A stretch of DNA of 59,227 bases, counting the filler, from Sphacelaria rigidula (lineage: Eukaryota), in the NCBI GenBank assembly GCA_964200075.2. It is 5 parts of 5 records of this genome, joined end to end, with 100 filler letters (N's around TTAATTAATTAA, not from the genome) between each part and the next. Parts side by side here need not be neighbours in the genome. Positions count along the whole stretch, not along the records: positions 11,867 to 23,632 come from CAXNAA020004531.1; 4 more parts are not named here. The stretch is one strand, 5' to 3'. Positions 7,506-57,179 of the stretch are shown piece by piece. Both the position numbers and the translations under genes were made by a program. The notes below the pieces were generated by a model. That model did not search any database. It saw nothing but the letters and a program-made list of their open reading frames with translations, and was not told the origin of the DNA. Every line of letters begins with the position of its first letter. Positions within the stretch are counted from its first letter, which is position 1.

Positions 7506-9254
7506 TGGCACAGAAAAAAACTTTGGAAAGTTGCCGACAACGGAAAAGTTACAGAAATCGCTCCGTTCAGCTGCTAACTGCTACTCCGTTTGTCATCCGA
7601 TCCTTGGTGTCTGATTGGCCTGCAAGATTTTTGGATCAGGAAAACTCTTGACGCTCCTTGAAAAAATACGCTGAATGTTCGGAGCCCAATTGGTATCTCT
7701 GAAAGTGCTTCCTCATTTCGTCGTCTCGGTAACCCTTTGACCACGAGCATACATCATCTGGTTAATGAGTGCATGGCCACATGGCCTACCCTTACGGTCA
7801 AAGCGTCAACACCTAGACCGCGAGGTTAGTTTTCTATTGAATCGGCATCAATTTCAAGTGAAAAAAAGCATGCCATGATCCAGAAAGACTTATCTCGCGG
7901 TCCAAGGGTCAAGTCGGGGCCTAACCAACCGACAGTTGCAGAATGAGTTTTCAGATTGAAATAAGTCTCAATCCCCACACGATGGTTTCCCTAAACCAAA
8001 AAGTAATTATGCGCAATACCATGCCTGTCGGCATAGTACACCTCGATTGCGTGATGAGTTTTTCAGCACTCTTCACCCACTCTGTAGAAGAAGCCCACGA
8101 GACTGGCGAAAGTGGATGATCAGGACATACGTAGGAAGATCTGAGGTTTGTCGATCGGTACGACTCATTACTAGAAATAATGAAACTGTTCCACCGAACA
8201 GATTACGGCGACGCAGGAATCGGATTCAGCTTGATCGGGTTGACACGATTGATTTGGGGACCGGACGAAGAGAGACAGCCGTCTGATTACTCAGATAGAT
8301 CAGCAGTACCGTACAGACTGTTATTCGGAAATCTCGTGATGCAGCACAAGCAGCGTTTGTGTTTTGTTTTCACTCTGGCCTGCTTGTGGAGAGATGATAT
8401 AGAACACGGGAAAACGGAATTTTCGCTCAGCGCCGTGAGCATAACAGAGGCGTGGAAGGGCGCTGAAATAGTTAACACGCGATCGAGGTGCACTACTAAG
8501 CCGACACAAATCAATTGCGCATGAACAGTTCTAGGTTAGAGGAAGCCCTGTTATGAAGTCGAGACTCACTTCAAGATTGACGAGTGAGTAATCGTAGACG
8601 TATCTCAGACCCCACGTTCCCGGTATATTTTCAACAGTACCGCCATTCCCATAAATTCATTCATCATTTTCATTCCTTGCCTTGACAATGAATGAGACCC
8701 GAGCTTCCCTACCGAAAAAGTCCAAAACGCTTGAGCTTGATATTTGTGGAGCGAAAAGGCGACGGGAAAAAGCTGCCGAACCAATCAGACGAAAGTCCAA
8801 CGGTTGCATGCGATGTACCACCGTTGAGAAACGTGTGCTCGACATTTGAATGCATGCCCCGGTACCTACACTCAAGCTCGACGCCTGGCGACTTCAGGGG
8901 TAGCCATAGGACGCTATGGTATCATGCACTTCTCTTTCAGTGACGTTGGTGAGGGATTAAGCGAGTAGTGGCCACTTGCGTGAACGTTTCAAGGGTGCGT
9001 TGGGTAGGGTAAGTACCCGGGTATTTACTTTCCCAAATTTTGTATTCCGATGGTCCGATCTCCAAACTCCACCCAATATGCGGGTAACTCTAACCAAGTT
9101 TTGGATGCTCAAGAGTACGATCTTTCAAAAAATAAACCAGGAACGTTTGCTCGATAATTCTGCAGACAAGGTCGGTTCGAAGTGATCGACGCGTTTGTCC
9201 GAGAACAGACGACGCTGCTTTCAGCTCGTGAGGGTCCAACCTTGACCCTTAAAC

Positions 9255-10835
9255 GGCGAGCGTCGCCTCGGAACAGTTTTACAGGCTAACAGTCCGGAGA
9301 CATTTGGGGGTTTCCGGTGGGCGGGTGGGGGCGGGTGGGGGGAAAGATTCTATCTGCAGAGCAGCCAAAAAGCTCACCAAGTCAACCTTGTGTCTGTGGA
9401 AGTTTCCCGCTGCAAATTAGGGGCCGTGCACGAGACCCGAGAGGCGCAGAATGACCACTCTGACCAATTGCGGTTGTCAAAATGAGCATGTAGTTCCCCT
9501 ACAGATGGACTACTTCGCTATCCACTGGCATATCTCATTTTGGTCATGGTAATTCCACCATAGATTACATGGGTACGAATAACTTCTTTGTACTCTGCTC
9601 GAGGTCTATGCCGCCTGTCTGACGGCTCATGTGTTGCCAGCATAGCCTCACACTGTCTGCAGTGTTTTTGTTGAACACTAAGCAGAGGTATCAACAGCAT
9701 GCAGCAAATTGTGTCCAGTCGAGAGCGATGGCGCACTTATACTGTCTCTTGCCGTTGTATCCAGCGAAGACATACAGTACGCATACATTTTGACCCTGGA
9801 CGCAATCGAAGGCAGGGACCATTTTGCTCAGGGGTTCTCCGGGACTATTCTCTACGTAGATGCCCAGACCCACATGTTTATGAAAAAGGCGTTTTGTGAA
9901 GCGGGAAAAGAGCAGGTTTGAACCCCAAGTGCGACACAGTCCAATATAGTCCACCTGCGGGGGGGGTCGCTGGCTAAGGGTTAAGGGAACCAAAAACAAC
10001 GAGCGAACAGCAGAGGAAGCGTCCAAACGCGGCATTTTGATTGGTCGCCGCGATATCACGCGGCGGGGTGATATCGCCGCGCCCAGTCAATATCATGCTT
10101 TCGGTCGCTTGCGTGGCGATTCGTTCTTATTTTGGTCCCTTCTCAATCCTTCGACAGCGAGCGTCGCCTCGACAACAGTTTCACGGGCTGCCAGTCCAGG
10201 AACATCCAGGGGGCGAGGGGGTGGTTTTCGACATGATGGGGCCTGTGAGCAGAATGGCCGCAAAAATCACCAAGTCAACCATGTGTGTTTGGGCCGTTCC
10301 GACGGAAAATTTTCAGCCAGGGACGAGACCCGAAAGGAGCGGGGTGACCACTCTGACCGATCACGGCTATCAAAGTTGTCACCTTGTTTCTCTTCAGGTG
10401 GACTACTTCGATGTCTAGCCGTTTCTCTCATTTCGGTCACGACAATTCAACCATAGATTACTTGGTCATAAAACAATGTGCTTCTCAATCTACTCGTGGT
10501 CTGTGCCATCTGCCTGACCCCTCTTGTGTTGCCACCGTTGCTCCACACTGTGTAGTGTTGTTACCGAACGGTAAGCAGAGATGTTAGCAGCATGCCGAAG
10601 GCTGTTTTGTTCAGTGGAGGGCAATGGATTGCTGACTGTTTTTTGTGCCGTTGTATCCAGCGAAGACATGCAGCACACATACTGACTCTGCACGCAAATT
10701 GGCTGCAGGTTCACAACCGGTCAGGGGTTCTCTGGAACTATTTTTTCTATAAGGATGGCCAACATCCGCATGTTCATGAAAGATGGCGTTGTGTGTATCA
10801 AGAGGAGAGTTGTTTTGAACCCCAAATGTGGCATG
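9255..10835 (+). repeat. Diverged direct duplication (~9255-9940 and ~10158-10835)
   Basis: Shared collinear blocks cgagcgtcgcctcg, caccaagtcaacc, gccgttgtatccagcgaagacat and tttgaacccca at ~900-bp offset. Confidence 0.8.
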
Positions 10836-11766: not shown

Positions 11767-11866
11767 NNNNNNNNNNNNNNNNNNNNNNNNNNNNNNNNNN
11801 NNNNNNNNNNTTAATTAATTAANNNNNNNNNNNNNNNNNNNNNNNNNNNNNNNNNNNNNNNNNNNN
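11767..11866. other. Artificial contig spacer
   Basis: 44 N + TTAATTAATTAA + 44 N. Confidence 0.99.
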
Positions 11867-12719
11867 ACCTTGGCTGTCGATCTCATTCAGCGTGGCGGCG
11901 GAAGCCGCCGAACCCCTTGTATATATATATATATATAGATGCTGGCCGCATCAAGGAGTTGAAATTCACCACAGGTATATAATCACATTGATTTCTCGAG
12001 AACATGCTGCTCCCGCAAGTGTGTCGGTACAGGCTGGTTCACGGGAAAAAAACAAAAAACACTCATCGGCAAACCTTCACGCCGTTTTAACCCTTTGGGA
12101 ACCCTCCCCTCCCGTCCCCGTTCCAGACGCCTCATTATTTCAAGTGCTGACAGAGAAGAAAATATGAAACAAGAAAATACCGACGACAACCATTCTTATG
12201 CCGGAAGGCCACAGAGGAATCCACCGAAATACGTCACGCTTGCACCAAAAATGTCGTCCCGGTGCGGTCGGGTCATTTTTCACTCAATGAGGGGACGCAG
12301 CCAAAAACCAGCAACGAGGCCCTCTGGACTACAGATTACAAAAATCAGCCCCTCCACTCTATTTTCTAGTCACTTCGTCCCGTGTGCGACTGCGGCACAG
12401 ATTTATAACGGTGCCACACCCACCGTAGTGCTGCTGTGCTGCAGTCCGGAGTTCGCACCCGCTCAACACTTGTCAAGCGCGCTAGGGAACATGACAAAAA
12501 CAACGCAGTATGGCCGAGCACACAGATATCCCCTCACCAGACGTAAAAGGAATGAGCTGCGATGTTTACGCGATCCATCGCCAGTTAGAAGCGGTTGCGG
12601 AAACGCAAGGGAAGGCCGCAGCGAGGGTTTTTGCAGAGCAGGCTGCAAGAGCCGTGGGGGCAGCGCATTGGCCCCCGACGCACACATGACCCCCCCGACA
12701 GCTCCCGGATGCCATCAAC

Positions 12720-13394
12720 TTGGATGCCGCTAAGGAAAATGCATTCAGACACTCGGGCCTGTGTGGAAAACACCAGGCGGCCATAATTGCGGCTTTGCGA
12801 ACGGAGGACATCGAGAAAAACGGAAAGGAACCCACCGGAACAGCCTATCGCAATCAGGTGCGGAGAATTGTACTCCACTATGGTCGGTACATGCAATTGG
12901 GTAGAGTACAGCGTCGCGATGTGGCTTTAGTCTAACCTGTGGTGTAACACCCTCACATTGCAGAAGAGCGTAGCCCATGAGGACAGACGGTACACACGAT
13001 AGCGCCGGCCAGCTTGATCGATCATACGCAGCACGGGGCATGTCTTGGCAACCGTAATGAATGATGAACCCGTACTGTACACAAGTGAAACCGTCAAAAT
13101 GCAAAACAGGAAGTGCTGTACAAACGGTACTGTACTGTGCATGCCGTGAGACATCAGTCAAGTAGCTATTCTCGTGCACGGAACCACTACAGAGCAGAAG
13201 GGTAGCACCCCTGGCCGGGTGTAAAAGCGACCAGCTCTATGTGCCGCACACCGACGGTGAAATATTGTGGATATGCCGTATGGTTCGATCTGGTGGGACG
13301 ATCAATCTGCAGTGTACGGGCAGTGTTGCCGAAATGTACAGTGGAGACAGGTGAAATATATCATGCATACCCCCGATATAGAACAGCACCATAG
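12720..13394 (+). pseudogene. Small accessory gene remnant inside the piggyBac element, possibly P2RX7_C/KolX-like
   Basis: Coding-like 12720-12857 (..GLCGKHQAAIIAALR..GTAYRNQ then GT) and 13239-13394 (VKYCGYAVWFDLVGRSICSVRAVLPKCTVETGEIYHAYP), which resembles the Y..Y...R..LPxC.V..I...YP motif. Confidence 0.3.
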
Positions 13395-14169
13395 CACCCC
13401 AGCGGCTCCCGCGAGTGGTCGCCTCTTGCTGGAACACACTGACAGATACACCGACATTGCATGACCTTGGGAATACACCGTGCGTGTCGCCGTTGTTGTT
13501 GTAACTATTGCGCAGGCGTGTTTCGATGCAGCCAAAAGCATCAACTTCCGAGGAAGGGGGGTACAACTGCGTCGAGAGGAATGCTTTACGTAGGCTTGCC
13601 GTGCACTCTGACCGGGGGGGAGCCTATGAGCGCCGTCATTCAGCATGCGTTCATGTAGGAAAAATATAGTCACTACTGCGGCTGACGGAGTAGTTTTGAA
13701 TTCAGAATGAGGAACAGTGCACTTGCCAGTGGTGATAGACCACAGCGGCGTTAGAATTTAGCGTGTCTTTGTTCCCTAGCGCATGAGTGAAGTCCTGCGC
13801 AGGAACATGCACGTAGGAAGGGAAACTAAGCCTGCAGCGTCTCACGGCGGGCGGGTGTGTATGTGCTAGATTTACTGCATGATCTGGGATGAGAAAGGCC
13901 CCCACCGGCGGAGCGAGTGGTTGAAGATATGACGTACATGAAGACGAACGTAGGTGACAGGGAGGCGTGGGAGGACGGGCGGTAGGGGGAGGCGGGAAGC
14001 ATGTGTCGTTCAAGTATGTGACCCCATTATCGTGCATGGATACGGGCGTGAGTGTACGGTATGCTTAGGGTAAGGAAAGGGGAGTCACTGGTGCTACATA
14101 TTCAACACGGGAAGCACCGCATGATTCAACAGTTCATGGCGTGATGTCACCAGACATGTTATCTGATGG

Positions 14170-14335
14170 TGCAGCCCCGTTGTATTCATTGTTTCCAGCA
14201 CTTTTCCACCTTGCATCGAATCGTGCAGCGAGCGCACGACCTCATATACTGTTTTTGGTGTTTGCGTTTTTATTTGGCCGGGATGTTGACGCTGGCACCG
14301 GTGGCCGCCAAAAAGCAGACCAACGTGCACCATGA
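14170..14335 (-). pseudogene. Remnant of the piggyBac C-terminal cysteine-rich domain
   Basis: WCTLVC...(TPKTVYE in the adjacent frame)...CARCTIRCKVEKCWKQ*, with stops and frameshift; correct strand and position for the transposase C-terminus. Confidence 0.4.
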
Positions 14336-14347
14336 AAGGCTTCACCC

Positions 14348-15539
14348 CATAAGACTTGAAATATTGTGATGACAAAGGGCCATAAAAAATAACAACACGA
14401 CGAGTGGCATGTGCGGCAATCCGGCAACTCCAATCCCCGGTGGCCGCAATCACTCCGTACCCCAGTCCCGCACGAGTCACACAAAAATCAAAGTTGAATC
14501 CCCAAAATACATCACGGCGTGCGGCCGTACTGCCCCGGTGTGCTCGAGGGCATTTGTGACATCGAACACAGTGTAATCATCCTCAAAGATGAAAAACAAA
14601 ATGAAGAAATAATGAGAAACGCAATCAGCCGCCGACAGCACGCGGCGGCGATCACACATTCTTGCCATACCCGCCCCACCACCGTCACCGACCCCTCCGA
14701 AAACAATATACAAAAAACCGGCGACAGTCACGCCGTGCAACGGAAATCCACGTCGCGATAGTCACAAAAGCAGCCAACACCGCACGGCCGTTACCACATC
14801 ACGGTGGAGAGACAATGTCAATCGACCGCCGAAAAGTCACTATCCACGGGCGTGCCGCTCCCGCTCCTGTTGCCGACACCATGACGATACAACCCGGATG
14901 CGGTTCTACCGGGTAATACACAATCGGCCGCCGCAAGTCGACGCCGGCGACCGCACCCGTCGGCATACCGACACTGTTTCTATCGCCGACGGGGAAAGGA
15001 AGAACACATAATATCAGCGGCGGACACGTTTCTTCGTGGTCGCCCGCAAACACTGCTTGACTGCATGCGGGACGCGTCCTTCACGCTCGAAAGCAGCACA
15101 TAAGAGTTCAAATGTTGTGGTAATAAACGGCCGTGAAAAACAATAACACGACGAGTGGAATGTGCGGCAGGCCAACAACTCCAATCGCCGGTAGCCACAA
15201 TCACTCTGCAACCCAGTCCAGCCCGACTCACAAAAAAAAAAAAATGAATCTAAGATACATAACGGCGTGCGGCCGTGCCGCCCGGTGCACTCAAGGGCAT
15301 TTGCGACATGGAACACAGTATAATCATCCTCAAAAATGAAAGAAAAAATATGAAGGACACAATCGGCCGCCGACAGCACGCGGCGGCGATCACACATTCT
15401 TGGCATACCCGCTCCACCACCGTCCCCAAACCCTCCAGAAACTGTATACACAAAACTGGCGACAGTCACGCCGTGTAACGGAAATCCACGCCGCGATAGT
15501 CACAAAAGCAGCCAACACCGTACGGTCATTACCACATCA
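14348..15539. repeat. Two ~445-bp direct repeats (14348-14801, 15099-15539)
   Basis: Collinear from cataaga... to ...ttaccacatca, including the identical block cgccgacagcacgcggcggcgatcacacattctt. Confidence 0.9.
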
Positions 15540-15683
15540 TAAAAACAGCCGGTACACTCCATACCCGTACGCATGTCCCGACACGCCATCAGCCTGTGTT
15601 GAACCCCAAGACCCGACCGGCGGCTACGGCGCTCCCCCCACAACTGCCGCGGCGCTCCCGCCTCCATGGTCATGCCTACGCAC

Positions 15684-15810
15684 CTTTTCTCATGATCTCG
15701 GCACCTTGTGCCGGTCGTAATCGAATGTGTCGCTATTCTCGTTTTTGCTGCTTGCCGTCATGCGCGGTCGGTTTCTCCTCCGCGGTGCAAAAGTCGACGT
15801 AGTCATTCGT
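15684..15810 (-). pseudogene. piggyBac-like transposase exon (TNDYVDF...), frameshifted
   Basis: Pyrimidine-rich acceptor ...ttcttggcttgCAG, then TNDYVDFCTAEEK; after a 1-nt shift ..FDYDRHKVPRS*EK and donor GTGCGT. Splicing to the previous exon gives IDLIVKY|TNDY. Confidence 0.6.
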
Positions 15811-17316
15811 CTGCAAGCCAAGAACGGAAGCAGTGGCAAACAGGTGCGTGCCGCTTCGGTAATTTTCCCACGTGAAAACGGCGATCAATCCTAGTTGCCA
15901 TTACCAGCAAGAAAAATGTCCAGCACATCAACTTGTCCAGTCTCCAACCATAACCATAGAGTTTCAGTGTGAATAATATGATCACGTGCCAGTCCAACAC
16001 GTGCCCACGCAAACACTGGGTACCGCTATGATTCTTAGGCGTCATCGCGAGCGACCACGCGCGAATGCATTGGCCCGAAATACTGCATACTCTGCTTAGT
16101 TGTCATCTACCGCGATCTGAACCTTTCCCTTCCTCGGCGCGACTCCCCAACATGAAACAATGAGCCAATCTTATCCTGGTATACAGGACAGCGTTAGAAA
16201 AAAACGCTACCAGCAACGCAGTGTTTGTCGCCGTCAACACTCCGCGTCACAAGCACCCCGAGCTATACTCCGCGGTAGGTGATCTCTTCTCTATCCTGAG
16301 CCCGTTTGCGACAAATAATTGACCTAGTTCTCGACCAGGGATGATGCAATTCCTTGTGACATGAGAAAATTCAGCGATATTCGATAACAGTGGTGTACGA
16401 ATCGTGCCCGGTTGTCCAACACCGAGTACAAATTCGGAGAGATTCATTAGACCAAATTTTACGGCAACGAATCTCATTTCTTTGAGAGACCGGGATTTCT
16501 TGAAAATCAGGGGAACTTCACTTCGCGACCTCAAAATCAGGGGAACCGTTGCATGGCACAGACAGTAGCACAGACTTGTGAAACAGTTCTGTACGCAGAC
16601 AGTCGTTTCTGGCATAAGAGTCGCGTAGTCGTGCATGAAGCTGAAGAGCACGTGGGCAGCGGTATTCCTTCGAGTACAGCGTCGTACCGTTGTGCCCTAG
16701 GGTAATGCAGTGCAGGACACTCCATCAGTACACTACATGATAATAGTACATCATGGCACAGTCGGTATTGCGAGCGCAGTGAACAAACGGTGTGTGCGAA
16801 GAGTTCAGTACTGCAGTGCCAAACGTCACTCTGCAAGCACAGCGACAACAGAGAAGGAGAGTACAGTACAGTTCGTAATATTGATACATTTGGCAGCGCC
16901 GTGCAGCACAAAATATTACCATCGCCGCAGGACACAGCGTCAACACTTATTACTCGCTGCTCAAAACCCGAGCGAAGCTGCCTCAGCAGGTGGCGCGGGC
17001 AGGCACCACCTGCGGTATCACGATACTGCCTCTTGCTGCGGTGCCAAAGTACCAAATCCTCGTACCCTACCATTGTACGCCAATGCAAGCACGTCACCTA
17101 AAAAAAGGCGGGGGAAGTAACGATCTCGGAGCAATTTCACCCGTTTTCTTCCGAATAATCGGTGGAATTCCTTCGGAGATCGTGATACCCCGATTTTTTC
17201 TCCCCCGACTTGGTCAAAATCGGGGCCCATAAAAGGCGTTGCCGGATTCCCCCCCCCCCCCCACCGATGTAAAAAAAAAAGTCGAGATTGGTCACTGCCA
17301 CAAAAGACGGACTTAC

Positions 17317-17625
17317 ATATTTCACGATGAGATCAATGGCCTCCGGGGGAAACATGATGTCGAAAAATGAGAGCACGAGATCCTCCACGCTCCCTTCGAC
17401 CACGGCTTTATACCCCCCGCGGTCCACCTTCGGCAGGCGCTCCAGGAGTTTCTCCGACAGGATGAACTCCGCGCTCCGACGCCGCCCCGCTTCGCGCTTG
17501 GGATATGTCTCGTCTACTCTCAACCCCTCTGTGGTCCACTTCGCCGAACCCACACCAACAAAATCGCCATCAGGGTCCACGCTCCCGTCGCCGTCATCGT
17601 CGTCACGGTCATTGTCGGCGTCGCC
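17317..17625 (-). pseudogene. piggyBac-like transposase exon (acidic linker plus start of a DDE_Tnp_1_7-like region)
   Basis: 309-nt open phase-0 exon with CAG acceptor after ttctctttctccccc and GTAAGT donor; ends LSFFDIMFPPEAIDLIVKY. Confidence 0.7.
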
Positions 17626-19013
17626 CTGGTGGTGGCGGATAATGCGTGTGTCACGCACATGGGGGAGAAAGAGAATATCGATGATGGACTCGCCAACACT
17701 CGCGACAGAGTGCATCGGAACTGTACTCCCACCGCGTGCGATGGAAAACCCAACTCGTGCTGTATTGACTACATATACGCGCAAGTAATATACAATGCAC
17801 AATGCAAAGCTGCAGGTGGCCCAAGCCTTTTTCACGTCGCATTGGAAGCAAATAGAACAGGCGGTCCGGCGCTATCTGTACTTCATGTGGCCCTCACCTG
17901 TTTCACATCGTACTGCACGAAGCACGCACATACACGCACGCACACACTTAAGGCACGGTGCATGCAGATAGTGCGGACGACACCGGCTCCCGGTAATGCA
18001 CACAAGCGAATGGCAACTATCCACGAACTTCGCTGTGTTTCTGCGATCGCAACCTCGGCTTGCCCGTATAATGCTATCAAATTTTCTGACATAATTCCAC
18101 CTCAGCGTAAATATCATAGCGTTTCAGTAATTAGCACACAGCAGATCCGCGCTGGTTCAGTTTGTTTGCCCCAACCTGCACGCACCCCCCCTGCGTGTCT
18201 TGCCCCAATCACAGCACACGACTATAACTGAAGTACCAGAGTACACGCAGTAGACGATTTTCCCAACATTTCTTGGTTTGCACAGCACTTCGATCCCACC
18301 CCGAATCTGTGCAGACCGTTTGACTCGAGACGAAACAGCCAACACGCCATGGAGGTTTCAACAGCGTGTTGAGAGCACTGCATGCCGGCATCACATTATC
18401 TTTCATCGAGACGAACGGAATGACAATATACAGCAACTCAGCCATTCCTAGCGGGGATCACCGTCTCCACGAAGGCCTGAAGACGCCACAGCGCAACGAC
18501 AGCTACAGCACACGATACAGAGCATGAGTGTGTTTGCGTTGCAGCACAACGATACAGGACATGTCCCATTCGATAGTTCTTTTCCTGATCGCAGGTGGGT
18601 CCTCGATGTTGCCGAGTGGCGATTTTCAAAAGCTCGGCCATGATCGCGGTTCCCGCGCGAAAATATTCCAATTCACTGTGAATTACCCCTATCTGTGGGA
18701 GGGGAGTCGAAATGCTGGACAGCTGCAATGTTGTGGGCGAAACACTTTTCTATCACCGACAGCCGCCTGTCTGAAATACGTGAATGCTGTGGAACTAGTC
18801 ATTTGCCGATACTGATCACAGTATAAAACTGCCAATCTGATCGATGCTAGCATAACAAGTAAAGGTCTGAACACCACCGTCAACACCACAAGCGTAGAGT
18901 GGTGGGTGGATCTGTGTACCCGTTCGAAAATGGTACTGCTCCGGATAGTGTGTATTTCTCAACTGCTCCAAAAGTGGGGATGTATCGTTTTCGAGGTTTC
19001 TGCTAGTACAAAG

Positions 19014-20796
19014 CAAGGTTGTGTTCTGTAAGTTACGGGTACGTCCTGTAGGGTATGGGGTTCTTTAGAGAACTCATAGAACTGTCGGGTACCGGTATGA
19101 AACTCTTACAGAGTTTACAGAACTGTCGGGTACCGGTATGAAACTCTTATAGATTTTACAGAACTTGTCGGGTACGGTGAGGGAGGGTTACAGAAAACCG
19201 GTACCGGCATTCGGGTAACTCTTTAAGGGAATACCCGCCCCTTGGGTAAGAGTAAAGTTTTTGTAGAGAACGCACGGAAATGTCGGGTAAGGGTATGGGA
19301 GGTTACAGAACTCACCAAAACTGTCGGGTAGGGTATGAAGGTTGCACAGCAAACCCTACCCGCAGCCGGGTATATTATCAAGGGTATACCCGTGCCCCCC
19401 GGTCACGGTACGGGAGGCTTACAGAACTTACAGAACTATCGGGTAAGGGTATGAAAGTCTCACAGATATTATAGAACTGTCGGGTACCGGTATAAAAGTC
19501 TGACAGAAGTCCCAGAACTGTCGGGTACGGTAAATACCCGGCAAAATACCCCGGGTATATAGAATCCGTGCCCTACGAAACAAGACCTTGGTATCATCAT
19601 CACCCCTGTCGTGGGACCTACGCCACTACAACAGTGGCGAAATATATATGATAGTTCACGATAACTCTGAACGGCGTTCATGGGGTTGATAGAGAAAGAC
19701 TACACGAACAATCGCAGTAGTACATGTGCACGGGATCGTCAACATCTATCGGTTTCACGTACACTCCCAGAGAGTACATGAAGGAGCATTCACGACTGCC
19801 CGTTCTCTGGAAATCCTTCGGCACGCGACAAAGTCGCCGACGGCCTTGACGACTTTCGGTGGCATACTCCGCGCTGTACATGTCGACAACGGCCTCGGAA
19901 TTGATGACGACACAACCACCATCAACGTCGATGACGTGTGTCGTGCCACTTGATCCCCTAGTGGCGCAGATGAACCGCCCCCGCTCGAGCCACCACTCGA
20001 GTCTGGGGGTGATCCATCCTCACGGTCTGCAGGGCTGCTCATGTTTCGCGTTTCCACTCAGCGGTACGTCGTATCTCGTCAGATCCCACACTAAAGAACT
20101 TTTCAACATTGAATTGTTGTTGGTGTGCAGTTTTGAATGAAGGAGTTGGGTGGGTTGATCGATGGGGGGTACACGTTCAGGTCATGAGGTTGTGTTCCGA
20201 TTGAACCTATATCCGTACCTCCCCAAGGTATATACCTGTGCTCATACCTGCAATCGGGTATACTATAACGGTATGCCCCAACCCCAGGTAGGGGTAAGGG
20301 AGGCTTACAGAGCTCACAGAACTGTCGGGTACCGGTACCGGATGAAAGTCTTACAGAACTTACAGAGCTCGTCGGGTACGGTACGGGAGGCTTACAGAAA
20401 ACCGGTGCCGCCAATCGGGTATTTCTTCAAGAGCATACCCGCCCCTCGGGTTAGGGTAAAAATTCTGTACAGAACTCACAGAACTGTCGGGTAAGGGTAT
20501 GGGAGGCTTACAAAACTCACCGAAACGATCGGGTAGGGTATGGAGGTTGTACAGAAAACTGTACCTGCAATCAGGTATCTCGTCGAGAGCATACCCATGC
20601 CCCCCGGTAACGGTACGGGAGTCTTACAGAGATCACAGAACTATCGGGTAAGGGTATGGAAATCTTACAGAGATTACAGAACTGTCGGGTCCCTGTATGA
20701 AAGTCTTACAGAAGTCACAGAACTGTCGGGTACGGTAAATACTCGGCAAAATACCCCGGGTATACAGAAACCCGTACCCTACAGAACACAACTTTG
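19014..20796. mobile_element. hAT-like non-autonomous composite element nested in an intron
   Basis: TIR caaggttgtgttctgtaag ... acagaacacaactttg; arrays of acagaact(g)tcgggta / cgggta in 19014-19590 and 20185-20796; same layout as 52406-53618. Confidence 0.75.
19680..20057 (-). pseudogene. 5' fragment of a possible hAT transposase (BED-finger-like start)
   Basis: Frameshifted coding-like METRNMSSPADRED... then ..SFMYSLGVYVKPIDVDDPVHMYYC, lying inside the hAT-like ends. Confidence 0.3.
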
Positions 20797-20883
20797 CAAA
20801 ACTACGTCACAGATGTTCAAAGACATCAACCATGTAGAGAATACCCTACAACTGTATCGAATACTCGTATCCTTCCATCTCAC

Positions 20884-22160
20884 CTCCACCGGTGCGTTCG
20901 TCGGAGGCTCCATCCTGGCGACCGTCTTGCGTACTTCTTGGTACCGCTTCTCGGCAAATTTTGGTGCATACTTTAACACTGCCGCCCACGTCTTAGGGAT
21001 CGACGCCTGCCCCCCTTCCTCGTCCTCCCCGCCCTTCAACTCACCGTCAGACCCGTAGTACCGTTCGGCCTCTCCATCATCGGCGTCTTTACTGTCTGCC
21101 TCCTTCTTCTTTGGCCTTCGCTCACGTTCCAGTCCCAACCCGCCGACCCCCCAGTTCTTGTGCTTTCCACGAAGAACCGCGCCGGCCTTGCGACGGGCCG
21201 TGCATCGCTTCCCTTTCCGTGCGCCTCGCTCAAACACCGCTGTGCACGCCGTGCCTTCGGTATATTTCGCTTGTGGAGCCACGCCAGGGGAGAAGTGAGG
21301 CTGTGCAGGTAAAGACGGCGCGAGGAGAGGCATGTGCGGCATTGCCTCCACGTCGAGATCGTGCCGATACCGCCTGAGTTTCGGCAGCATCAACCCCTGT
21401 ACAGCGCCTCTGATCATTTTTGCCACTCGCGTTTCCGCCACACCATTTAGGAACAGTGCTGCAGTACCAGGTGCTGTTTGACGACCGCGGCTAACATCAT
21501 CTGTGGAACAGTACCTTACATCCACCCAGTGGTTCTTTTCATCCAGAAAGTAACGTTCATCCATGAACCCATTCGTACCGCTGTACAGTTGTACCGCATT
21601 TCCGCCATGATGTGGCTCCCACACCATAACATTCGCGTCCAAAACGGCACTGGCCGCTGCGAGTCATGGCATTTTCAGCCACAGACCCTCACATTCTGCC
21701 CCCCACTTCAGATGCCTCCTGAACCACCCGATGGTGCCCCTATCGACCACGATAGGCGGCTCGTGTTCGAACGTCTCCGTGAGAGAGAGGTTCCCCGCCA
21801 TATTTTGGCCGTTTCTTGTGATGACATGTCGGTCTTCATCTGCCTCCCCGTCACAGGTGTTGTACACTACAGTACCGCATATGGCTTGCACCATGTACTC
21901 GCATGCGCCCATCATCGGGCACCGGCGTAATGCGGCCTAGTGCTGCCGTCAGCAAAGACTCACGAGCGCAGTTTCCTAAAGGTGTTGTCGACAACTCGGT
22001 TGCCTCGCGGCTATGTTCTGCAAGCTCCGCAAAGCAGCTCCCGTCCTCATCGCGTACCGCGTTCACGATATCAGACCCACGTTTGGTATTCGGTGGTCCC
22101 GGAAATGCTGTACGTGCCACGTTTGTGGCCTTCATCTCTCCCTCGAGGATATCCATGCTT
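20884..22160 (-). pseudogene. OTU-like cysteine protease plus Cys/His finger exon, 5' part of the transposase gene
   Basis: Cys box TTPLGNCARESLL, middle motif GLWLKMP*LAAASAVLDANVMVW, His box YFLDEKNHWVDV, then CTAVFERGARKGKRC..VL(R)GKH. One frameshift (~21920) and one stop (21664-21666). Phase-0 donor GAG|GTGAGA at 20884. Confidence 0.6.
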
Positions 22161-22504
22161 CTGTGTGGATGGGCTGTATGGCTGCCTAGTTGGGTTGTGT
22201 TTGTGCTCAGGGAGCCATTTCGTACGAGACTGTAACCCACTATGTTTGTAGTTTGTCAGCACGCCTCCGCACATTTTGTTTACTTGCAGTGCTGAAAAAG
22301 ACCGATGGGTCGAACAAAAAACAACGTTCTTCGCCACCGTCGAAAATAGGCAACCTTCTTTTTTTCCGTGTTTTATTCGCGCGGGTCTGAAAAACACGCC
22401 CTGGGCAAAATAGTGCTGTGTGGGAGCTGAAAACTATCAACCATATGTCCTTCAAAACCAGCACCTCCAAATCAGCACTTTTTCCACTGCCAGTCCCAAA
22501 AGGG

Positions 22505-22770
22505 TTAAGGAGTTAGACCCTGAAAAATTACACAGGTGTTCTATGGGTCCTTACGCAACTTTGGAAGGACGAGTTTTTTTTTCACTTCTTGACTCTTTTC
22601 ACCGTTTTTCCGGGGTCACACTTTTGTCGGGAAAAATTCAGTCCAGTCGGACCCCCGTAAAACGGGAAAGAATAAAACCTCGTTCATAAAAAGTTGCGTA
22701 ATGATCCATAGAACAGCTGTGCAAAATTTCAGGGTCTAACTCCTTCGAACGGCGTGAAGGTTTTCGCGTT
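22505..22770. mobile_element. Inverted-repeat host element interrupted by the piggyBac insertion
   Basis: ggagttagaccctgaaaaattacacaggtgttctatgg is inverted relative to ccatagaacagctgtgcaaaatttcagggtctaactcc; the missing part of the arm sits at 12071-12090. Confidence 0.75.
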
Positions 22771-23507
22771 TGTGCGATGAACCTTGCCGTGCCACGGTGA
22801 AACGGCAAACTACTAGAGTTTGGTATAAAAATGGCGTCTCAGGGCATTTTTCGACGTGAACATGAAAATTCAAGCACCAGTTAATCGAGTTTGGCCACGA
22901 AACTTTGTGGGGTTCTTCCTTGGGTGTGCGGCGGCAGAGCGTTCGCGAAACAAATGAAAAAAAAATACTTGGATCCCGTCGGACCCCCGAAAAACGGTAA
23001 AAACAATTCCAGAAATAGAAAAACCTCGTTGATCGAAACTTGCGTGATGGTTCAAAGCACATTTGTGCAAAGTTTCAAAGTCTAACTCCTAATAAATGCG
23101 TCAAGATTGCGCGGATGTGCGTGCAAACTCCTCACTACTTGTTTTGAGTATGAAAACATATTTTAGGGTAAATTTTACGTCAAGGCAGGAAAAATTGTAT
23201 GATATTTCCGAGTTTCTCCACGAAAAATTGTACATGTGTTCCTTGGACCATCCTGGGACGCATCATGTTATTATTTTTCCTGTTTATTCATTCTGTACCG
23301 CCTGTCGGGGGTCTTTGTACTGAGACCCCCGGAAGCCGGTAGAGGACGGAGAAACTATGAACCCTTGCAAGAACACCAGGAACACAAGTTTTCCATTTGG
23401 CGCATCAATACCTACGGAACTGCCAAGTTTGAGGATGATCTGAGTTTTTCTACGACAGATATACGGGAAATCGTCACGAGGCTCTCCGAGTTTTTCCTGC
23501 GTATCAT

Positions 23508-23632
23508 GACTGCTGAAAGCGGAGGCGATGGAGGCCCTGCTATACGGATGCATGACATGGTCCCCACGTCGCGAACACTACGACTTGCTTCGAAAGGTGC
23601 ACTACCGACTCCTCCTGCGAGTCATCGGGTAC
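23508..23632 (+). mobile_element. RTE-type LINE reverse transcriptase fragment
   Basis: LLKAEAMEALLYGCMTWSPRREHYDLLRKVHYRLLLRVIG; homologous to 56720-56832 on the minus strand. Confidence 0.8.
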
Positions 23633-23732
23633 NNNNNNNNNNNNNNNNNNNNNNNNNNNNNNNNNNNNNNNNNNNNTTAATTAATTAANNNNNNNNNNNN
23701 NNNNNNNNNNNNNNNNNNNNNNNNNNNNNNNN
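23633..23732. other. Artificial contig spacer
   Basis: N run with TTAATTAATTAA. Confidence 0.99.
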
Positions 23733-24271
23733 TTCTTGTCTTCCACCCCCTTATTCTATGCAGTTTGTTTGACTTTGACTGCAGAAGTTTCTCGCAAATA
23801 AGTTTCCCCCCCCCCCCCCAATTTCAGGTATTGGCGGGCAAAATGAGGATTCATTTCAAACAGCTTCTGGTGCACAAATCCCATCTGCGAGTGTATATGG
23901 GATTTCTACAGCCTCTTCTGTTCGAAATAAATCCTTTTTGCCCGATTCTAAACTTGGAATTAAGATTTATTCCGAACAGTAGAGGCCGTGAAAATTCCAG
24001 ACTTCCATAGCACTTGTGCCTTCAAAAACAATCCAGGGGATTTTAATATTGACACAGACCTACGAGGGTCCCAACCTTGAAAATCCCCTAGGGGATTACA
24101 AATACCCAAGATCCTCTAGGGGGGATTTCAAAACGGAAGGAACCGAGGATGAAGTTGGGAAATTCCTCTACAAGGGAGCCGAATGGCCGCGTGTGCGGCA
24201 AAAGTGGTGGAAAATGTGAAATGATACATCTACATACATATATTTACGTATTTATATATGCGTATATATAT

Positions 24272-24478: not shown

Positions 24479-26835
24479 TATATGACGGTCATTTGTCATA
24501 ACTTTAGGTCTGGGGAAGCACAGCTTCGGAGTTGAAACTCATTTCAATGTTCAAATTCGTTCCTAAGGGTGGTCTCTTGAGCGCACGGCAAACGTTGTGG
24601 TAGTATGTGGCCATCCTGGTACTTTTTACAACATTCGTACATTCAACTCCTGCGCAACGGAGTGCAAGAGCCAAACAACGCATCATTCGCACTTCTCAAC
24701 CAAGAATGATACAAGCACCCAACGCGTCTAAATTGCAGGTGGTCTCAACTCCGTGATTAAGTATGCATCGCGCACCTTTCGTTCATGTAAGCTTGCAAGC
24801 TTTTCCGCGCAAAACAGTTCATAGGAAGCCATGGCTCGAACCGCTACTCACGCCATGCATACGAATGCAACAACGGCAAGTTTCTCATCAAGCGCCGAGC
24901 CACCACGACATGTGTGCATTATGAACTATCTCGGTGCAGCACGTTGAAAGCGTTGTCAATACTCGTCCCATACACCAAGATGTGTTTAGCCACCATACAA
25001 CGACCACAGCGCCTCTTCCTCATGCAGTTTTCATGACGTCTTGAAGTCCTCAGACTCCTCTTCTTGACCACGGCTGGCCAACCTTGAACCAACTCTCGCG
25101 CGATCCCCCCGACCAACGCACGCAATAGTTGCGCCTCGTGTTCCGCAGGCTGTTGGGGCAGGCCAGCTGTTGATGAATCCCCCACACCTTGCGCGCGAGC
25201 GATACCACAGCATGCTCTAGCACTACCTCAAAACCTCCTTGGCTCTGCTCTTGCCAGCGCCTCTCGACGTAGACACGCCTTGAGCTGGTCTTGTTTGCTG
25301 CAAACTGATCAGGTCTGCAGAGTCATAACTGTCTTGATGTGTCAGCTGTTTTCCAGCGGATCACATGAACGCTTTTGACGGAGTTCTGCACTCAAGACGA
25401 GATTGCTACGTGGACTCCTTCCATGCTACAGTCATTCATACATTGACCTTAGCTGTTTATTATGCGGAGAGGAGCATCCCAGCTTCTCTCCCACAGAGTG
25501 AGCGAAGTAATCCAGGCGATCAAAATGAAACACCCCCGCGGAGATCACCGATCATACTTGCCTACCCGGAGTACATTAACCAGCTGTAAACATGCCCACT
25601 ACATGTAGTCCCGATCCCATTCGAGTACCAAACCTATGCAACAACGACAGCCAAAGTCTACGGGGGTTCTCCCGCATGCACCAGCTTCATACAAATACTC
25701 AACGTATACTTGCTTCATGTAGGCAGGCGTCCTGTGTAACCTAAAAACCAATAGTTCCGACACCAAAGTGATGAGAACTTCCAGGCAATCTGCGTGGAGG
25801 TAGCGCTCAAAGAATAACCCTTCGGGGGTGGGTCACCTGGGTCTCGCATCCACTTTTCGAGTGATGATAATGCCAGTGTGACAGAAGACCCACCCTAGCT
25901 ATCAAAGGGTCGCTGTCGAGCCACCAGCGCTTGCCTCTGCACGTGTATACTCAAATTGCACACTCCACCGCCAAAGGGTTGAACCTTGAAAGAGCGAAGA
26001 GCACGGCGGCAACAATCCCGGAAACTCTTGAATGGGCGGGTAAGCTGGCCCAAAGAGATCCATGAACCGTGAAAGTTGAACCCAATCGGCAACATTTGAA
26101 CAGAACGCACTGGAAACCTACGATCGGAAACAGCCATTGAAGAGCCTACCTGACGTGCACGCAGATTTAGGCAACGAAGAAAGTAGATGCCACCGCGCCC
26201 CTGTGGTGGAATTGTTTCGACGCTTCGAGACGATAAAGCGGGATTGGTGTGTGTATTATCGTGCACCGCTGGCCGCAAAGTCTAGGTGCGGTCCATGAGT
26301 GGAATCAGCATTCTATTTGTGAAGCCAAGTAGTCAGTCGCGCGGCACTAGCGGTCCATTGTTAGATGTCATGGAGCGAAGTACATTAACAGAAGATCATG
26401 GGTGTTCCACAGGGTACAACATCGATCCTCTCTTTTTTTTTTTCGTGGGAGCCGTACCTGCGTTGAACAGCTATACAGCTGGTGTTTGCGTCCTCTCCAC
26501 CGGTGCTGTAAGCGCTCTGTGAACACCTTCCCTGCCCTAGACACAGACCTACGACAATCCAACGCAATGGCCGCGGAGAAGTAACGTTCTTGTGTTATTT
26601 TTTGTTCTCTTCACAGATAGTCGGACACTGACGAGAGCTAAACGTGGCCAACATCGATCACGGCCACTAGCGCTCGTCTACGGCAAGCACGAGGACGCGC
26701 GTTCGACCCGAGTTGTCCATGGAACACATGGTGGCGTCACATTATATGGCATACGATATTGCCGATCCAGGAGGGACGAAAGGAGGACAGAAAACGAGGC
26801 TTTATACACGATGCCGCTCCCGGCGACGAGTATGC

Positions 26836-27516
26836 ATGTCGCTACCGTCTTCCAGGTCGTATTCGCTCTTCGCTTTCATTGCTTTTTTTGCCTCGACTGT
26901 GCTGTACGACAGACAGGGTGGCGTTGCAAGCGCGATTCCTTGCGCACCCACCACTCAGCAATCTATTACGGTGAATCCGTCGTCCGCGACTACAGTATCG
27001 GCCGTATTCGAATGTGAGGGCGGAAATTTCGACGTGACGTGGTCCGGTATCGTTAGTGTCCAGGAGTCGATCGTGATCGGCAACGGCACTACGGTGTCTA
27101 TCGCCGGAAACCACGTCAGTGACCTCACAGTCGGAGATTCTTCGGACAGCACCGGCACCAGCAGTGACGAATCGTCGGCGATCCTTACGACCGACAATAT
27201 CGGGCCTGTGTTCTTGGTGCGTGGGGGAACCTTGAATATTGAGGGCGTTGCCATCCGAGGAGGCAACTCTATGAACGCCACGGAAACAGCCGGACTGAGC
27301 GTTATCAACGGCGGGGGTATATCTGCGGAGGACGCAAACGTGACGGTCACAGGTTGCACTTTCGAGAACAACTTCGCGGATTGGGTAGGAGGGGGTTTAT
27401 TTGCCAATCGATCGAGGGTAGAGGTGCGTGATTCGGCGTTTCGGGAGTGCAAAGCAGGGGATACCCCGGTGGCGGGTGAGGTCGACGGCGTGGAGGGTGC
27501 AGGAGGTGGCGTTGGG
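26836..27516 (+). CDS. Polymorphic outer membrane protein-like (parallel beta-helix) secreted protein, exon 1
   Basis: Signal-peptide-like MSLPSSRSYSLFAFIAFFAST; FECEGGNFDVTWSG; GGGI / FENN / GGGLF repeats; phase-0 GTGAGA donor. Confidence 0.85.
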
Positions 27517-27951
27517 GTGAGAGAGTGCGCAAGCTCGTGCATGCATGTGGCAGACAATATCCCTAATGCTGGTGTGTTTTGTCCTGGCTGTTGAGCATAA
27601 ATGTCTGCACGAGCGCGAGTCGCTGTGGTGGGCACGTGTCTTCACATTGCTTGCGATTCCGTTTAAGCGTGCCCTGAGCTTGTTTTGAGAGTGTTATATT
27701 TGGCAGGGTGTGCTGTCTGTCTTCAGTCTTTAATCATTTCCATCATCATGCAAAGGCGTTAGATCTTGAACATGCCTTGCATGACTCATTTCCTCATGCA
27801 CCTCGGCCTCGGGTTGTTCTCGTTTTTTACAAGATTCTTCTCGTGTCTGAACCCGGTCCCAAAGCTCCAGAATGCGCCACATAACTTCCTCTTCTGCTCT
27901 TTCCCGCCACACCATATTTCCCTTCTCGCATCATGGACGCCTCATGAGTAG

Positions 27952-28105
27952 GTTGAATGGGGGGACTTGTTGGTGGATAACTGCCTATTCTACGACAATT
28001 TTGCGAGCAAAAAGGGCGCGGGCGTGCACATGGCCAACGGGAAGTTGTCCGTGTTGAACTCGATTTTTCTCAATAATTTGGCCGGAAGCAACAACGAAGA
28101 AGACG
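27952..28105 (+). CDS. POMP-like protein, exon 2
   Basis: TAG acceptor; VEWGDLLVDNCLFYDNFASKKGAGVH...FLNN; phase-1 GTGCGT donor. Confidence 0.85.
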
Positions 28106-28416
28106 GTGCGTAGACAATGCGAAACGTGACTTTGGTGTGATTTGAGATACTGTATGCACTAGTGTCCGTAACGTGGTTCGTATTCATAGAACGGTGAGCC
28201 AGCGTGTCGTCCATATGCATCCTGTGTCTCAAGCTTTCCCTGTCGAGGCATACACTTCTGCCAGCACGAACGCGATGCTATTGATGCTCTCCTTCTGCAT
28301 CAGTGACTCGGCAATAATCATTCGTGGTGTGCAAATCAAAATACCCTCTCGCTTCTCGCTCCTGACCGTTCACCCGTGACCTGGGAAATCCCGCGTCCTC
28401 TCGCCGATTCGTTCAG

Positions 28417-28733
28417 CGGAAGAAATCGGCCAGGGGGGCGACATGTCAATCACAGCATGCGTGGCAGGTTTCGACAACGTCGGGGCGTGTGGAGCCAACG
28501 AGTCTATATTCACCAATGCCCATGTGGCGCGTAAAGGTGGCTCGGTACAGCTGTCGAGGGGAAGTTTGGGACCGGCGCACGTGGAGTTCCATGGGTGCAA
28601 TTTCATGAACGCTTCGGCGGGGAGATACATCGAGGATGATCCGCAGGGGGACGGGGGCACGTTTTCTGTGGGCAAGCAGTCGACGCTGGTTGTAGTGGAT
28701 ACTGTTGTGAGCGGCTCCTACGCAGGGAACAAG
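28417..28733 (+). CDS. POMP-like protein, exon 3
   Basis: CAG acceptor in compatible phase; GQGGDMSI..RKGGSV..GDGGTFSVG..YAGNK; GTAAGA donor. Confidence 0.85.
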
Positions 28734-29421
28734 GTAAGAGTTCGATCGTGAGCTGTTTCTCTACCTTCACATTGTTGTCGTTTTGGAGTTTTCTCTTGAT
28801 GCGTGCTTTTTCACGAGGTACTCGCTTGAGAAGTCGTATCACTGAGGCGAACGGGACAGCTCTGTACCGTGACATCCGTTGGAAGCGCATCTGAATCGCC
28901 TCGTGACCCATTCTAAATTGCTGAATAGGTCATGTATTTTGTCCAATGGTGAGTACACGTATACCATATACCAACGGCGGCTCACCCACATTGAATTACT
29001 GGAATGTAATGCCAACAAGTATCGATCAGCCGGACATGAAACCAGACACCAATTGTCGTAGTTTCTGATTCTAAAGTTCCCCTGGCACGGCAGAGTACAA
29101 GCGCTTGAGCTCACCACTGTTTGCGTGATCGTCGTTTCTAGAATAGACACCAGGAAAATATTTCGGTGTATGGTTTTCCAGGCCCACGGCAATCAGGGAC
29201 TTTGAAGAAGACTACCGACACCACCGTAACTTCTCATTAGACGAGGTCTGCTCAAATCAATCCATGCTACGATGAGGAGTCATCTTCTGACGTAAACGAA
29301 GTATCTAGTGTACGCGAGAAAATACCCAGTGTGATCTTCGGTGGTTAATGACGTTGATGCAACATCAAAATGATCGAACTTGCCCCGACGACCAACCGGT
29401 CCCATGCAATTCTTCCCAAAG

Positions 29422-29697
29422 GGTGGGGCGCTTTCCATATCCGGAGGAGGTAATTGGTCTACCGATGAAGCCGGAGGCATCGTAATCTTGATGAACTCCA
29501 CTTTCCAAGATTCGAAAGCGGGTCGAGAGACCGGAGGAGTCGTCTACGGCAACGAATATACCGTGGTGAACGTTACGGGCGATAGCAATAGCTTTTTTCG
29601 AAATGTCTGTGGCACTGACGGCGGAGTGGTTGCTGCGTCGCAAAACACGAGGGTGGTCGTCGAGGGCGGAATTTTTACCAACAACTCAGCCGACGAG
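29422..29697 (+). CDS. POMP-like protein, exon 4
   Basis: GGALSISGG..TGGVVY..DGGVVA..FTNNSADE; 276 nt; GTAAGC donor. Confidence 0.85.
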
Positions 29698-30357
29698 GTA
29701 AGCCGGGGCACCGCGGTACGGACCGTTTCTGTATATTGTCGGGAAGATGAGCAGATGGAGGATCGACGCAGTCGGGTGTCGGGGTCGAGCGGAAGAGTTT
29801 TGGGAGACACTGCCTCTTTGCGCACAACGTGAAATACCGTTTCTCAAAGGCGTGGCATGCATATTGAGCCACTTGTATGGGGTGTAGTCCATGTAAACAT
29901 CTTGAGCGGTACTTGCTGTCTGTACCGTGTATCCCACGAGTCTGACGAGACATCTGGAAGGGGCAACAAACTCATTGCCTGCTTTTATCACTTGTTGCGG
30001 ATGAGGTGTTCCCCGAGAAATGCAGTCGTGTTCACCAGACTGATGTACCCAAGGTAAGCAAAACAGAAGCACTTGATGGAGGAGAAGAAGAAAAGAGACA
30101 TAAACAAGGAGAAAACAAGTGGTGTGGCTGAAAAGAAAAGACACGCAGAGTCCAAACAGAAATGGAACGAAGGAAGCAAGTGGAAAGGACAGGATAAGAA
30201 CGAAGAAAGAACAGGAGAGGAAATGCCAGTCCCGTCCCTACGGCATGGCTTCAGATGAAAAATGCCAAGCGTGACAACACACATGCCCACACACAAAACA
30301 AAACAGACGTCCATGCAAATCTGATGGTATGTTTATGTGGATCTTCGATGCCTGTAG

Positions 30358-30630
30358 GGTGGCGGCGTATTTTGGACAAACGGCGAGCTCACTATCTCAG
30401 GCGGCCAGTTTATTGGAAACGAGGCGGAGGGAAGAGGCGGGGTGTTTTTCGTCAAAGACGGCCAAGTTGTGTTGGAAAATGGCACTTTTGAGGGCAATGA
30501 AGCGGAAGACGGAGCTGTGGGCTTCACTAGCGAGGACGCTGTGCTATATGTCAATGGAGGAACGTTCTTGCGGAATATTGCTGGCAATGGCGGGGGAGTA
30601 TTCTTTGCCGATGAGGATACCACGTTCGCG
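30358..30630 (+). CDS. POMP-like protein, exon 5 (gene continues, end not found)
   Basis: GGGVFWTNG..FIGNEA..RGGVFF..FEGNEA..GGGVFF; 273 nt; GTGAGT donor. Confidence 0.85.
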
Positions 30631-30940
30631 GTGAGTTTTGGGGCGGATTCGGGGCAAATTATCCGAGGAGGGAGTTTCGTGCAGTAAGTGTTATGCTTCG
30701 CCAGTCTCAAAACCCCGTGTACTGAGACGAAAGTGCGACAGCTAACGTTGAAGGAGGTGTGTTGGCTTGCACCGTTCGTGAACCCATTCGTGGTGGCTGC
30801 TATGAGTAGCGCATTTACAGAGCTACATTCACCCTTTGCGTTCAAGATGGCCTTCAAGGGGTGCCACCGACTGGTCTTGAATGCCGTGGGCAACCCGGGT
30901 GCTGTTCCTGAGCGGCTGCTCTCTGTTTGCGAGTACGACC

Positions 30941-47010: not shown

Positions 47011-47363
47011 GATACTGCTCTTCACCCGATGCACAAGATTTGATTGAACATATTGCTTCGTTGCGTTTTGCTCAAGTATACAGTACTGGACTCGTGATAG
47101 CAAGAGGACTTGCTGTAGCATACAGCAGTAGAAGGGGTCTCCAGCAATTGTGGTGTGCAAGTATCAGGATGGTGAAATGGTGTGAGCCAGGTGGGGTGTA
47201 CTCATGATGATGCATGCCTGAGCCAGGTGGGGGGGGGGCAGAGTTTCCTTCATGAATTTTCTTACTTCGAAGTGCAGCAGTAATGCTGTACAGCAGTACA
47301 GCACCGGCCCGCTAGTAAGAAACTGAAAAATCGGCCTGAGGCTAGGTTTCTTATTTTCCTGGG

Positions 47364-47463
47364 NNNNNNNNNNNNNNNNNNNNNNNNNNNNNNNNNNNNN
47401 NNNNNNNTTAATTAATTAANNNNNNNNNNNNNNNNNNNNNNNNNNNNNNNNNNNNNNNNNNNN
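47364..47463. other. Artificial contig spacer
   Basis: N run with TTAATTAATTAA. Confidence 0.99.
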
Positions 47464-53618: not shown

Positions 53619-53846
53619 GAAATTACGGCCGTTCAGATCGGGAGTTCTGTTTTCCACCGCACGTTTTCCATCAATAACTAATGGGCTAATAAGGGCGTGT
53701 CTCGGCACTTTTTTCTTCGATCGTGAAAGTGCTGTCGAAAAGAAATTATCTCATCTGACAGGTGCACCGCATTTATGTTCCTCGAAGGCTTCAACTCAAA
53801 ATTATAATTGGCGGCGCGCGGTGAAGAATGCGACTAGTGAAAAAAC

Positions 53847-57170: not shown

Positions 57171-57179
57171 AGTCCGAAA

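Follow-up and report, generated by a model that had tools for sequence, protein, structure and literature searches.

Can a cut-and-paste transposase of the piggyBac superfamily carry its own ubiquitin protease in the same protein chain? The question is raised by a 59,227-nucleotide stretch of Sphacelaria rigidula DNA (assembly GCA_964200075.2; hereafter, the window), which joins five parts of five records and in which positions 11,867 to 23,632, from record CAXNAA020004531.1, hold the remains of a piggyBac element. An initial annotation, made from the sequence alone, proposed that the minus strand here encodes one spliced gene in which an OTU-type protease and a Cys/His finger are united with a piggyBac transposase. 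We arrive at the same gene, with corrections. A spliced OTU-finger-piggyBac gene is supported by three independent lines, namely the fold and conserved residues of relatives, the architecture of a gene model from Ascophyllum nodosum and the position of the OTU exon inside the ends of the element. The window copy is very probably a decayed and internally deleted member of a brown-algal piggyBac family whose single chain comprises an OTU protease, a C-C-C-H finger, an acidic linker, a DDD transposase and a Cys-rich tail. The union of an OTU domain with a transposition protein is known elsewhere and its pairing with piggyBac is apparently new. As the copy itself is dead, its interest is mainly that of a pointer to the family. 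The initial annotation did not include the ends of the element, the insertion that intron 1 contains or a candidate second gene convergent with the transposase.

The protease domain of exon 1

The first exon and its parts were delineated as follows.

20884-22156, minus strand: exon 1, encoding an OTU-fold protease, a Cys/His finger, an acidic linker and a terminal helix, by alignment of relatives
21968-21976, minus strand: OTU catalytic Cys box G-N-C (Cys codon 21968-21970), aligned with the GNC of nairovirus OTU
21454-21465, minus strand: position from which the catalytic His box has been lost, about 10 codons by alignment with relatives
21160-21246, minus strand: C-C-C-H type finger, the third Cys being Arg in the window copy

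The exon opens with an ATG at 22156, which corresponds to the start codon of homolog P0006, and has suffered one deletion that shifts the frame, near 21904, and two that do not, besides a stop codon at 21664-21666. As contigs with zero differences cover 21688-22415 (run X1) and 21463-22155 (run X7), the frameshift is genuine and did not arise in assembly; three sister pieces cease aligning at 21902-21904, the site of this deletion. Of the OTU boxes proposed in this copy, LGNC proved to be the true Cys box, whereas NHW (21526-21534) aligns to a strand upstream of the catalytic His; near 21460 about 10 codons are missing, and with them the family His box (NHF-D). A PDDG..C motif that spans the frameshift was rejected as a catalytic box, since comparison with P0003 and P0006 showed that it was made by the deletion.

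Searching with a read-through exon 1 retrieved P0003, an uninterrupted relative that is 39% identical, and phmmer with P0003 returned 26 matches at E ≤ 0.001, of which about 24 are true family members. Twenty of the 26 were aligned together with the window copy; the short fragments P0010, P0011, P0015 and P0026 and the finger or low-complexity matches P0012 and P0024 were left out. The named members all belong to brown algae, from at least three genera, and one 90% cluster has 32 members that lie on different contigs, many of them truncated and repeat-like. No DNA loci of the relatives were found among viral contigs, or among metagenome contigs, where the alignment query contained no conserved word. 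Two motifs mark the family, G-x-C towards its N-terminal and N-H-F towards its C-terminal side, and the catalytic Cys is kept in 9 of 10 and the His in 17 of 18 homologs covering each site. At a mean pairwise identity of 26%, the Cys with the Gly before it and the His with the Phe after it all belong to the 10 columns out of 189 that are conserved at 85% or more. A C-C-C-H finger follows the OTU domain in many members and gives, in P0003, a weak zf-TRM13_CCCH match below cut-off (E 0.029).

The initial annotation hinged on an OTU fold for this exon. Pfam gave nothing relevant on 13 window pieces and no OTU match on P0003, and single-sequence searches of the PDB returned chance matches only, but the relatives taken together do match OTU proteases. 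All 22 PDB matches of the family profile are of this kind (nairovirus OTU, otubains, OTUD3 and EschOTU; best E 0.0073), the GNC and HFD boxes of the family standing in register with the nairovirus OTU; entries titled just polymerase or replicase were taken by us as viral OTU domains, in part from the structure matches. In the Atlas, residues 30-320 of P0003 lie at 0.93 with PF02338 clusters, second to one unnamed cluster at 0.94. The closest named OTU clusters there are those of giant viruses (Nucleocytoviricota); a viral origin of the domain is possible, Atlas proximity being in itself no sign of transfer.

The fold was judged on a relative, P0007, and not on the broken window copy. An AlphaFold model of P0003 built without an alignment reached a predicted local distance difference test score (pLDDT) of 35.5, and that of P0007, built with 24 sequences, had a pLDDT of mostly 85-95 across the OTU domain. 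Foldseek with the P0007 model gave OTU proteases alone among the matches listed, and in VIA-align OTU proteases took ranks 1-32 of 48,161 chains (best match Z 9.9, root-mean-square deviation (rmsd) 4.0, 142 residues), unrelated rows standing at Z ≤ 3.7. With the deubiquitinases yeast Otu2 (7pl7), nairovirus OTU (3phu) and OTUD1 (4bop) the model shares Z values of 9.4-9.9 and an rmsd of 3.4-4.0 over 135-153 residues, with the G-x-C and H-F-D boxes in register; it differs from them in its low identity (11-19%) and in a longer domain with insertions. As predicted by profile and model, the exon 1 family is a divergent OTU protease family missed by Pfam.

Besides the negative Pfam results, two points count against this assignment: the residue two after the His varies among relatives, and the window copy and its two closest relatives have Phe or Leu, and no Asp, three residues before the Cys. 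The rival explanation that survives best is that the fusion is real and the OTU domain is no working deubiquitinase, serving only as a ubiquitin binder or self-cleaver. The variation of the oxyanion-side Asp and of the third triad residue speaks for it, as do the Ser in place of Cys in P0025, the absence of the His from P0013 and a divergence too great for the Pfam cut-off. The conservation of the Cys, the His and their neighbouring Gly and Phe among the most constant columns opposes it, for a pure binder would presumably have no need of catalytic residues, though a self-cleaver would. We regard this rival as unlikely.

Probable splicing of exon 1 to a piggyBac transposase

Downstream of exon 1 the gene continues over two introns.

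17626-20883, minus strand: intron 1, 3,258 bp, GT-AG, phase 0, with a donor signature in homologs
17317-17625, minus strand: exon 2, which encodes an acidic linker and opens the N-terminal block of the piggyBac transposase, by alignment to P0030
15811-17316, minus strand: intron 2, 1,506 bp, GT-AG, phase 0
15733-15810, minus strand: 5' part of exon 3, completing the TN.Y motif (best acceptor; stop at 15733-15735)

Both junctions given in the initial annotation hold: a GT donor stands directly after 20884 and another after 17317, each of 17625 and 15810 has an AG acceptor before it, and the exons join in phase 0 and in frame. The claim that a piggyBac motif is rebuilt across an intron was borne out as well. 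Exons 2 and 3 align to residues 507-640 of P0030 with a score of 93 against a shuffle maximum of 55 (0 of 2000 shuffles reach it), and among 205 downstream AG sites the one at 15810 makes the best acceptor (gain 29; runner-up 19). Exon 2 is the second-best tblastn match of P0030 in the window (E 0.08); Pfam gave no direct match to a transposase on the window pieces. The end of exon 3 had been placed at 15684, a donor that is in phase 1 in a frame with a stop codon at 15733-15735, so its 3' end is not established.

P0030 (CAM9438324.1) is an A. nodosum gene model of 1161 amino acids (aa) in the 90% cluster of P0007. It combines a weak OTU match below cut-off (E 0.037) with a finger, a DDE_Tnp_1_7 domain over residues 579-987 (E 1.6e-27) and a tail rich in Cys. 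Its candidate catalytic motifs include FDEQM (738) and MDNYF (832), of which the second aligns to MDNYY of piggyBat. Up to residue 506 it is identical, bar two positions, to the genomic open reading frame (ORF) P0007, and it diverges from P0007 at the position of the window donor; the junction is common to the window and P0030, which are about 26% identical. Fourteen relatives retain the terminal helix of exon 1, and in 10 of them a K/E/Q residue followed by V, the trace that an AG|GT donor would leave, occurs within a stretch of 12 residues (background 9%; 0 of 200,000 simulations reach 10), the 12-residue stretch having been picked after viewing the sequences and the relatives not being independent. 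The predicted OTU-transposase fusion is supported by this one gene model plus the conserved donor signature.

Whether relatives carry protease and transposase in one chain, as the initial annotation implied, received a divided answer, and several observations tell against the fusion. P0030 is fused, but it is the only one of five named gene models to be so: P0009 (Pylaiella, 501 aa) continues past the donor and ends without a transposase, being modelled as a stand-alone gene, P0029 is a fragment of 190 aa, and neither P0005 nor P0006 is complete. The third catalytic site of P0030 reads GGVH where we would expect GGVD, so P0030 may be inactive or partly mis-modelled. No further long fusions were found in two weak searches, one with the family alignment (1079-3080 aa) and one with P0030 residues 520-1010 (638-2032 aa), and no Atlas cluster with both OTU and DDE_Tnp_1_7 appeared for P0030 among the five matches listed, small clusters being outside that search. 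The joint 20884/17625 was not among the best 15 of 2,021 joints in contigs of four runs, which weighs neither way as their RNA nature is a guess, none of the runs listed as containing this sequence being recorded as RNA. The models of one brown-algal genome project, possibly the source of P0030, were described as built from transcript and protein alignments (10.1101/2024.02.19.579948).

These observations leave room for a second rival, in which the OTU exon is a separate passenger gene in the element, with its own or an alternative short transcript, and the fusion is a gene-model artefact. The stand-alone P0009, the single full fusion model and the frequency of extra genes in giant transposons of Ectocarpus (as described in PMC12477816) all lend it weight. 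A passenger gene would, however, fit poorly with homologous ORFs whose conservation drops at the K/E/Q-V signature in 10 of 14 without a common stop, with an exon 2 that is in phase and lacks its own start downstream of the acceptor, and with a junction common to such distant sequences as the window and P0030. We consider it improbable and retain the spliced fusion.

As the initial annotation held, the copy is dead and shows no DDD core, the expected place of which is taken by other sequence.

14348-15539, unstranded: two copies of about 450 bp, 83% identical (14348-14801 and 15099-15539), at the expected core position, from self-comparison; no core remnant
14170-14335, minus strand: candidate remnant of the Cys-rich C-terminal domain, by pattern and position only

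No catalytic core was detected by Pfam in nine read-through frames. A spliced, frameshift-tolerant alignment of P0030 residues 616-1005 to 12091-15740 scored 48, a value reached by 10 of 60 shuffles and by 5 of 18 other window stretches; this search used one relative at about 26% identity, and short decayed exons could escape it. With an undetectable core, the copy is non-autonomous, yet it still belongs to the piggyBac superfamily. Motif-like stretches at 12780-13530, picked by eye as core remnants, were discarded after scoring at chance level. The Cys-rich tail claimed at 14170-14335 found no backing in scores, as it matched no relevant Pfam family and its score against the P0030 tail was reached by 2120 of 5000 shuffles. 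It is the only non-repeat one of three window sites with C-x2-C..C..C-W and sits at the expected place of the tail.

The mobile element and its copies

Comparison of the termini defined a piggyBac element at 12091-22504 (10,414 bp), bordered at both ends by TTAA.

22505-22508, unstranded: TTAA target-site duplication, 5' side of the element, from terminus comparison and the empty-site joints of runs X3 and X4
22494-22504, minus strand: 5' terminal inverted repeat (TIR) with a CCCTT-type end, 10-11 bp, matching the opposite end bar one extra T
12091-12100, plus strand: 3' TIR, from comparison of both termini
12087-12090, unstranded: TTAA target-site duplication, 3' side, from terminus comparison
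22509-23632, unstranded, with its other half at 11868-12086: high-copy host repeat hit by the element, from high depth, empty-site joints and alignment
19013-20797, unstranded: nested insertion in intron 1 resembling a miniature inverted-repeat transposable element (MITE), 1,785 bp, with 28-bp inverted ends and 41-bp internal repeats

The termini read CCCTT and AAGGG, and short TIRs starting CCC or CCCT are a piggyBac trait. When the element and one TTAA were cut out, the rebuilt empty site aligned over 93 columns (score 116) to the partner arm of the inverted repeat of the target, and contigs of runs X3 and X4 contain joints from 12087/12088 to 22507/22508, that is, the empty site. This copy relocated as one unit into a TTAA of another repeat, a piece of which (23507-23624) is found again at 56716-56833. 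Sister contigs about 90% alike span the element, one of them at a depth of 1,229 against 58-87 for others of the same run; this suggests many near-identical copies, although depth is no copy number. The 1,785-bp MITE is absent from sister copies, which show a joint from 18915 to 20797 in three of four runs. A relative of the MITE lies at about 52400-53620 (about 75% alike to 19013-20797) and belongs to a very high-copy family with 41-bp internal repeats.

The OTU-like exon begins about 350 bp inside the 5' end of the element and is therefore cargo and not a trapped host exon. The last rival, a host OTU gene trapped by an intronic piggyBac as in CSB-PGBD3 with the protease outside the transposon, draws on the nature of piggyBac as an exon trap tolerant of N-terminal fusions (as described in PMC5381638) and is highly improbable, being refuted for this copy by the element ends, with an empty site that lacks the OTU exon and a 32-member cluster scattered over different contigs, though it could still fit the distant origin of the family.

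Near the 3' end of the element, the plus strand holds traces of another frame.

12510-13957, plus strand: candidate decayed second gene, convergent with the transposase, with a near-open frame at 12513-12857 and a possible exon at 13836-13953

The frame at 12513-12857 has a coding-like base pattern and a Cys/His finger-like stretch and no Pfam match; it may be a convergent second gene of the element.

The closest described counterpart is PiggyBac-1_Ec32 of Ectocarpus (PMC12477816, supplementary file 1, row 113), annotated in 2025. By its description it is about as long as the present element (9,969 bp against 10,414 bp), ends likewise in CCCTT-AAGGG, duplicates TTAA, has a spliced transposase and lives in a brown alga. 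It is described with a second spliced gene tail-to-tail with the transposase, to which the candidate at 12510-13957 may correspond. Its TIRs are longer (13 bp against 10-11 bp) and no OTU domain or protease is named, the word OTU occurring 0 times in the text and five supplements. As the comparison is by description and not by sequence, PiggyBac-1_Ec32 may be the same family with its OTU domain overlooked, or a family without one.

Related systems, proposed role and other features of the window

OTU proteases are known from other transposon types. Ginger1 (as described in PMC2836005) likewise has a cut-and-paste DDE transposase and an OTU protease in one chain, as well as introns, and for it too the protease has been suggested to control transposition or repair through ubiquitin. 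It differs in its Gypsy-integrase-like transposase, C-terminal OTU domain, animal hosts, TIRs of 40-270 bp and another target duplication. P0030 falls outside Ginger1, having an N-terminal OTU domain, a DDE_Tnp_1_7 core and no integrase among its four Pfam matches. Helitrons of the Helentron type also fuse an OTU-like protease to their transposition protein, but they use rolling-circle RepHel chemistry, without a TTAA duplication or piggyBac ends (as described in PMC6431247). In PGBD1 (SCAN) and CSB-PGBD3 an extra N-terminal part is spliced to a piggyBac transposase; these are domesticated loci with the host exons outside the element, whereas here the protease exon lies inside a mobile, multi-copy element. 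The SCAN and CSB additions in domesticated genes are given in a 2017 piggyBac survey (PMC5381638). Our literature search of titles and abstract openings, with Repbase reports and most subscription papers lying outside it, found no OTU-piggyBac fusion.

With this family, piggyBac, the superfamily most used for gene delivery, would join the transposons that acquired OTU domains independently (Ginger1 and Helentrons). Why transposases carry ubiquitin proteases was asked in 2010 (PMC2836005), and we found no test of that question. The present family makes it testable, as piggyBac assays are routine, N-terminal fusions are tolerated and Ectocarpus chromatin maps exist.

An intact transposase of this type would bind the element ends and target DNA and bring the tethered protease along, which could then remove ubiquitin from nearby proteins and favour transposition. 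Were the enzyme active, its most economical substrate would be the transposase or transpososome itself, escaping ubiquitin-driven removal, and we tentatively put this possibility first. Second come histones that bear ubiquitin, or repair factors, where the DNA is cut or the element inserts, as a possible though rather uncertain target; this idea was put forward for Ginger1 (PMC2836005). H2B ubiquitin on the element's own chromatin, the boldest reading, is a doubtful substrate, and self-cleavage or another activity an unlikely one.

The anti-silencing reading, taken in full, would make these brown-algal piggyBacs carriers of a built-in enzyme that keeps the element free of repressive H3K79me2 through local H2B deubiquitination. 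Its background is that Ectocarpus is described as lacking Polycomb complexes (10.1101/2020.03.09.980763), that H3K79me2 marks transposon genes there (as described in PMC12477816) and that the DOT1 family is expanded (as described in 10.1101/2024.02.19.579948); DOT1, the writer of H3K79me2, is stimulated by ubiquitinated H2B in yeast and animals. Weighing against it, kinetoplastid DOT1 needs no ubiquitin, and OTU domains also occur on transposons of hosts with different silencing. We think it improbable as a whole.

Elsewhere in the window, the N gaps with the TTAATTAA spacer (11767-11867 and 23633-23733) were considered as TTAA target sites and rejected as assembly padding; two further gaps lie at about 47200-47400 and 0-100. 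In the region 8900-10600 the stretch 9247-9700 aligns with 10148-10593, a diverged copy at a distance of about 895 bp, and an AAGGG-TTAA terminus-like site stands at 9978-9984, for which no matching other end was found; the region is possibly another piggyBac-type relic. Minus-strand frames at 56400-57200 resemble, by eye, the C-terminal part of a long interspersed nuclear element (LINE) reverse transcriptase, the one piece tested giving no Pfam match, and a His/Gly-rich repetitive coding-like stretch without a Pfam match lies on the plus strand at 49700-50190. A multi-exon host gene on the plus strand at 26671-33000 is GG-rich with F-x-x-N repeats and a weak beta-helix match (E 0.0078), and we take it to resemble the polymorphic-membrane-protein-like repeat genes of brown algae.

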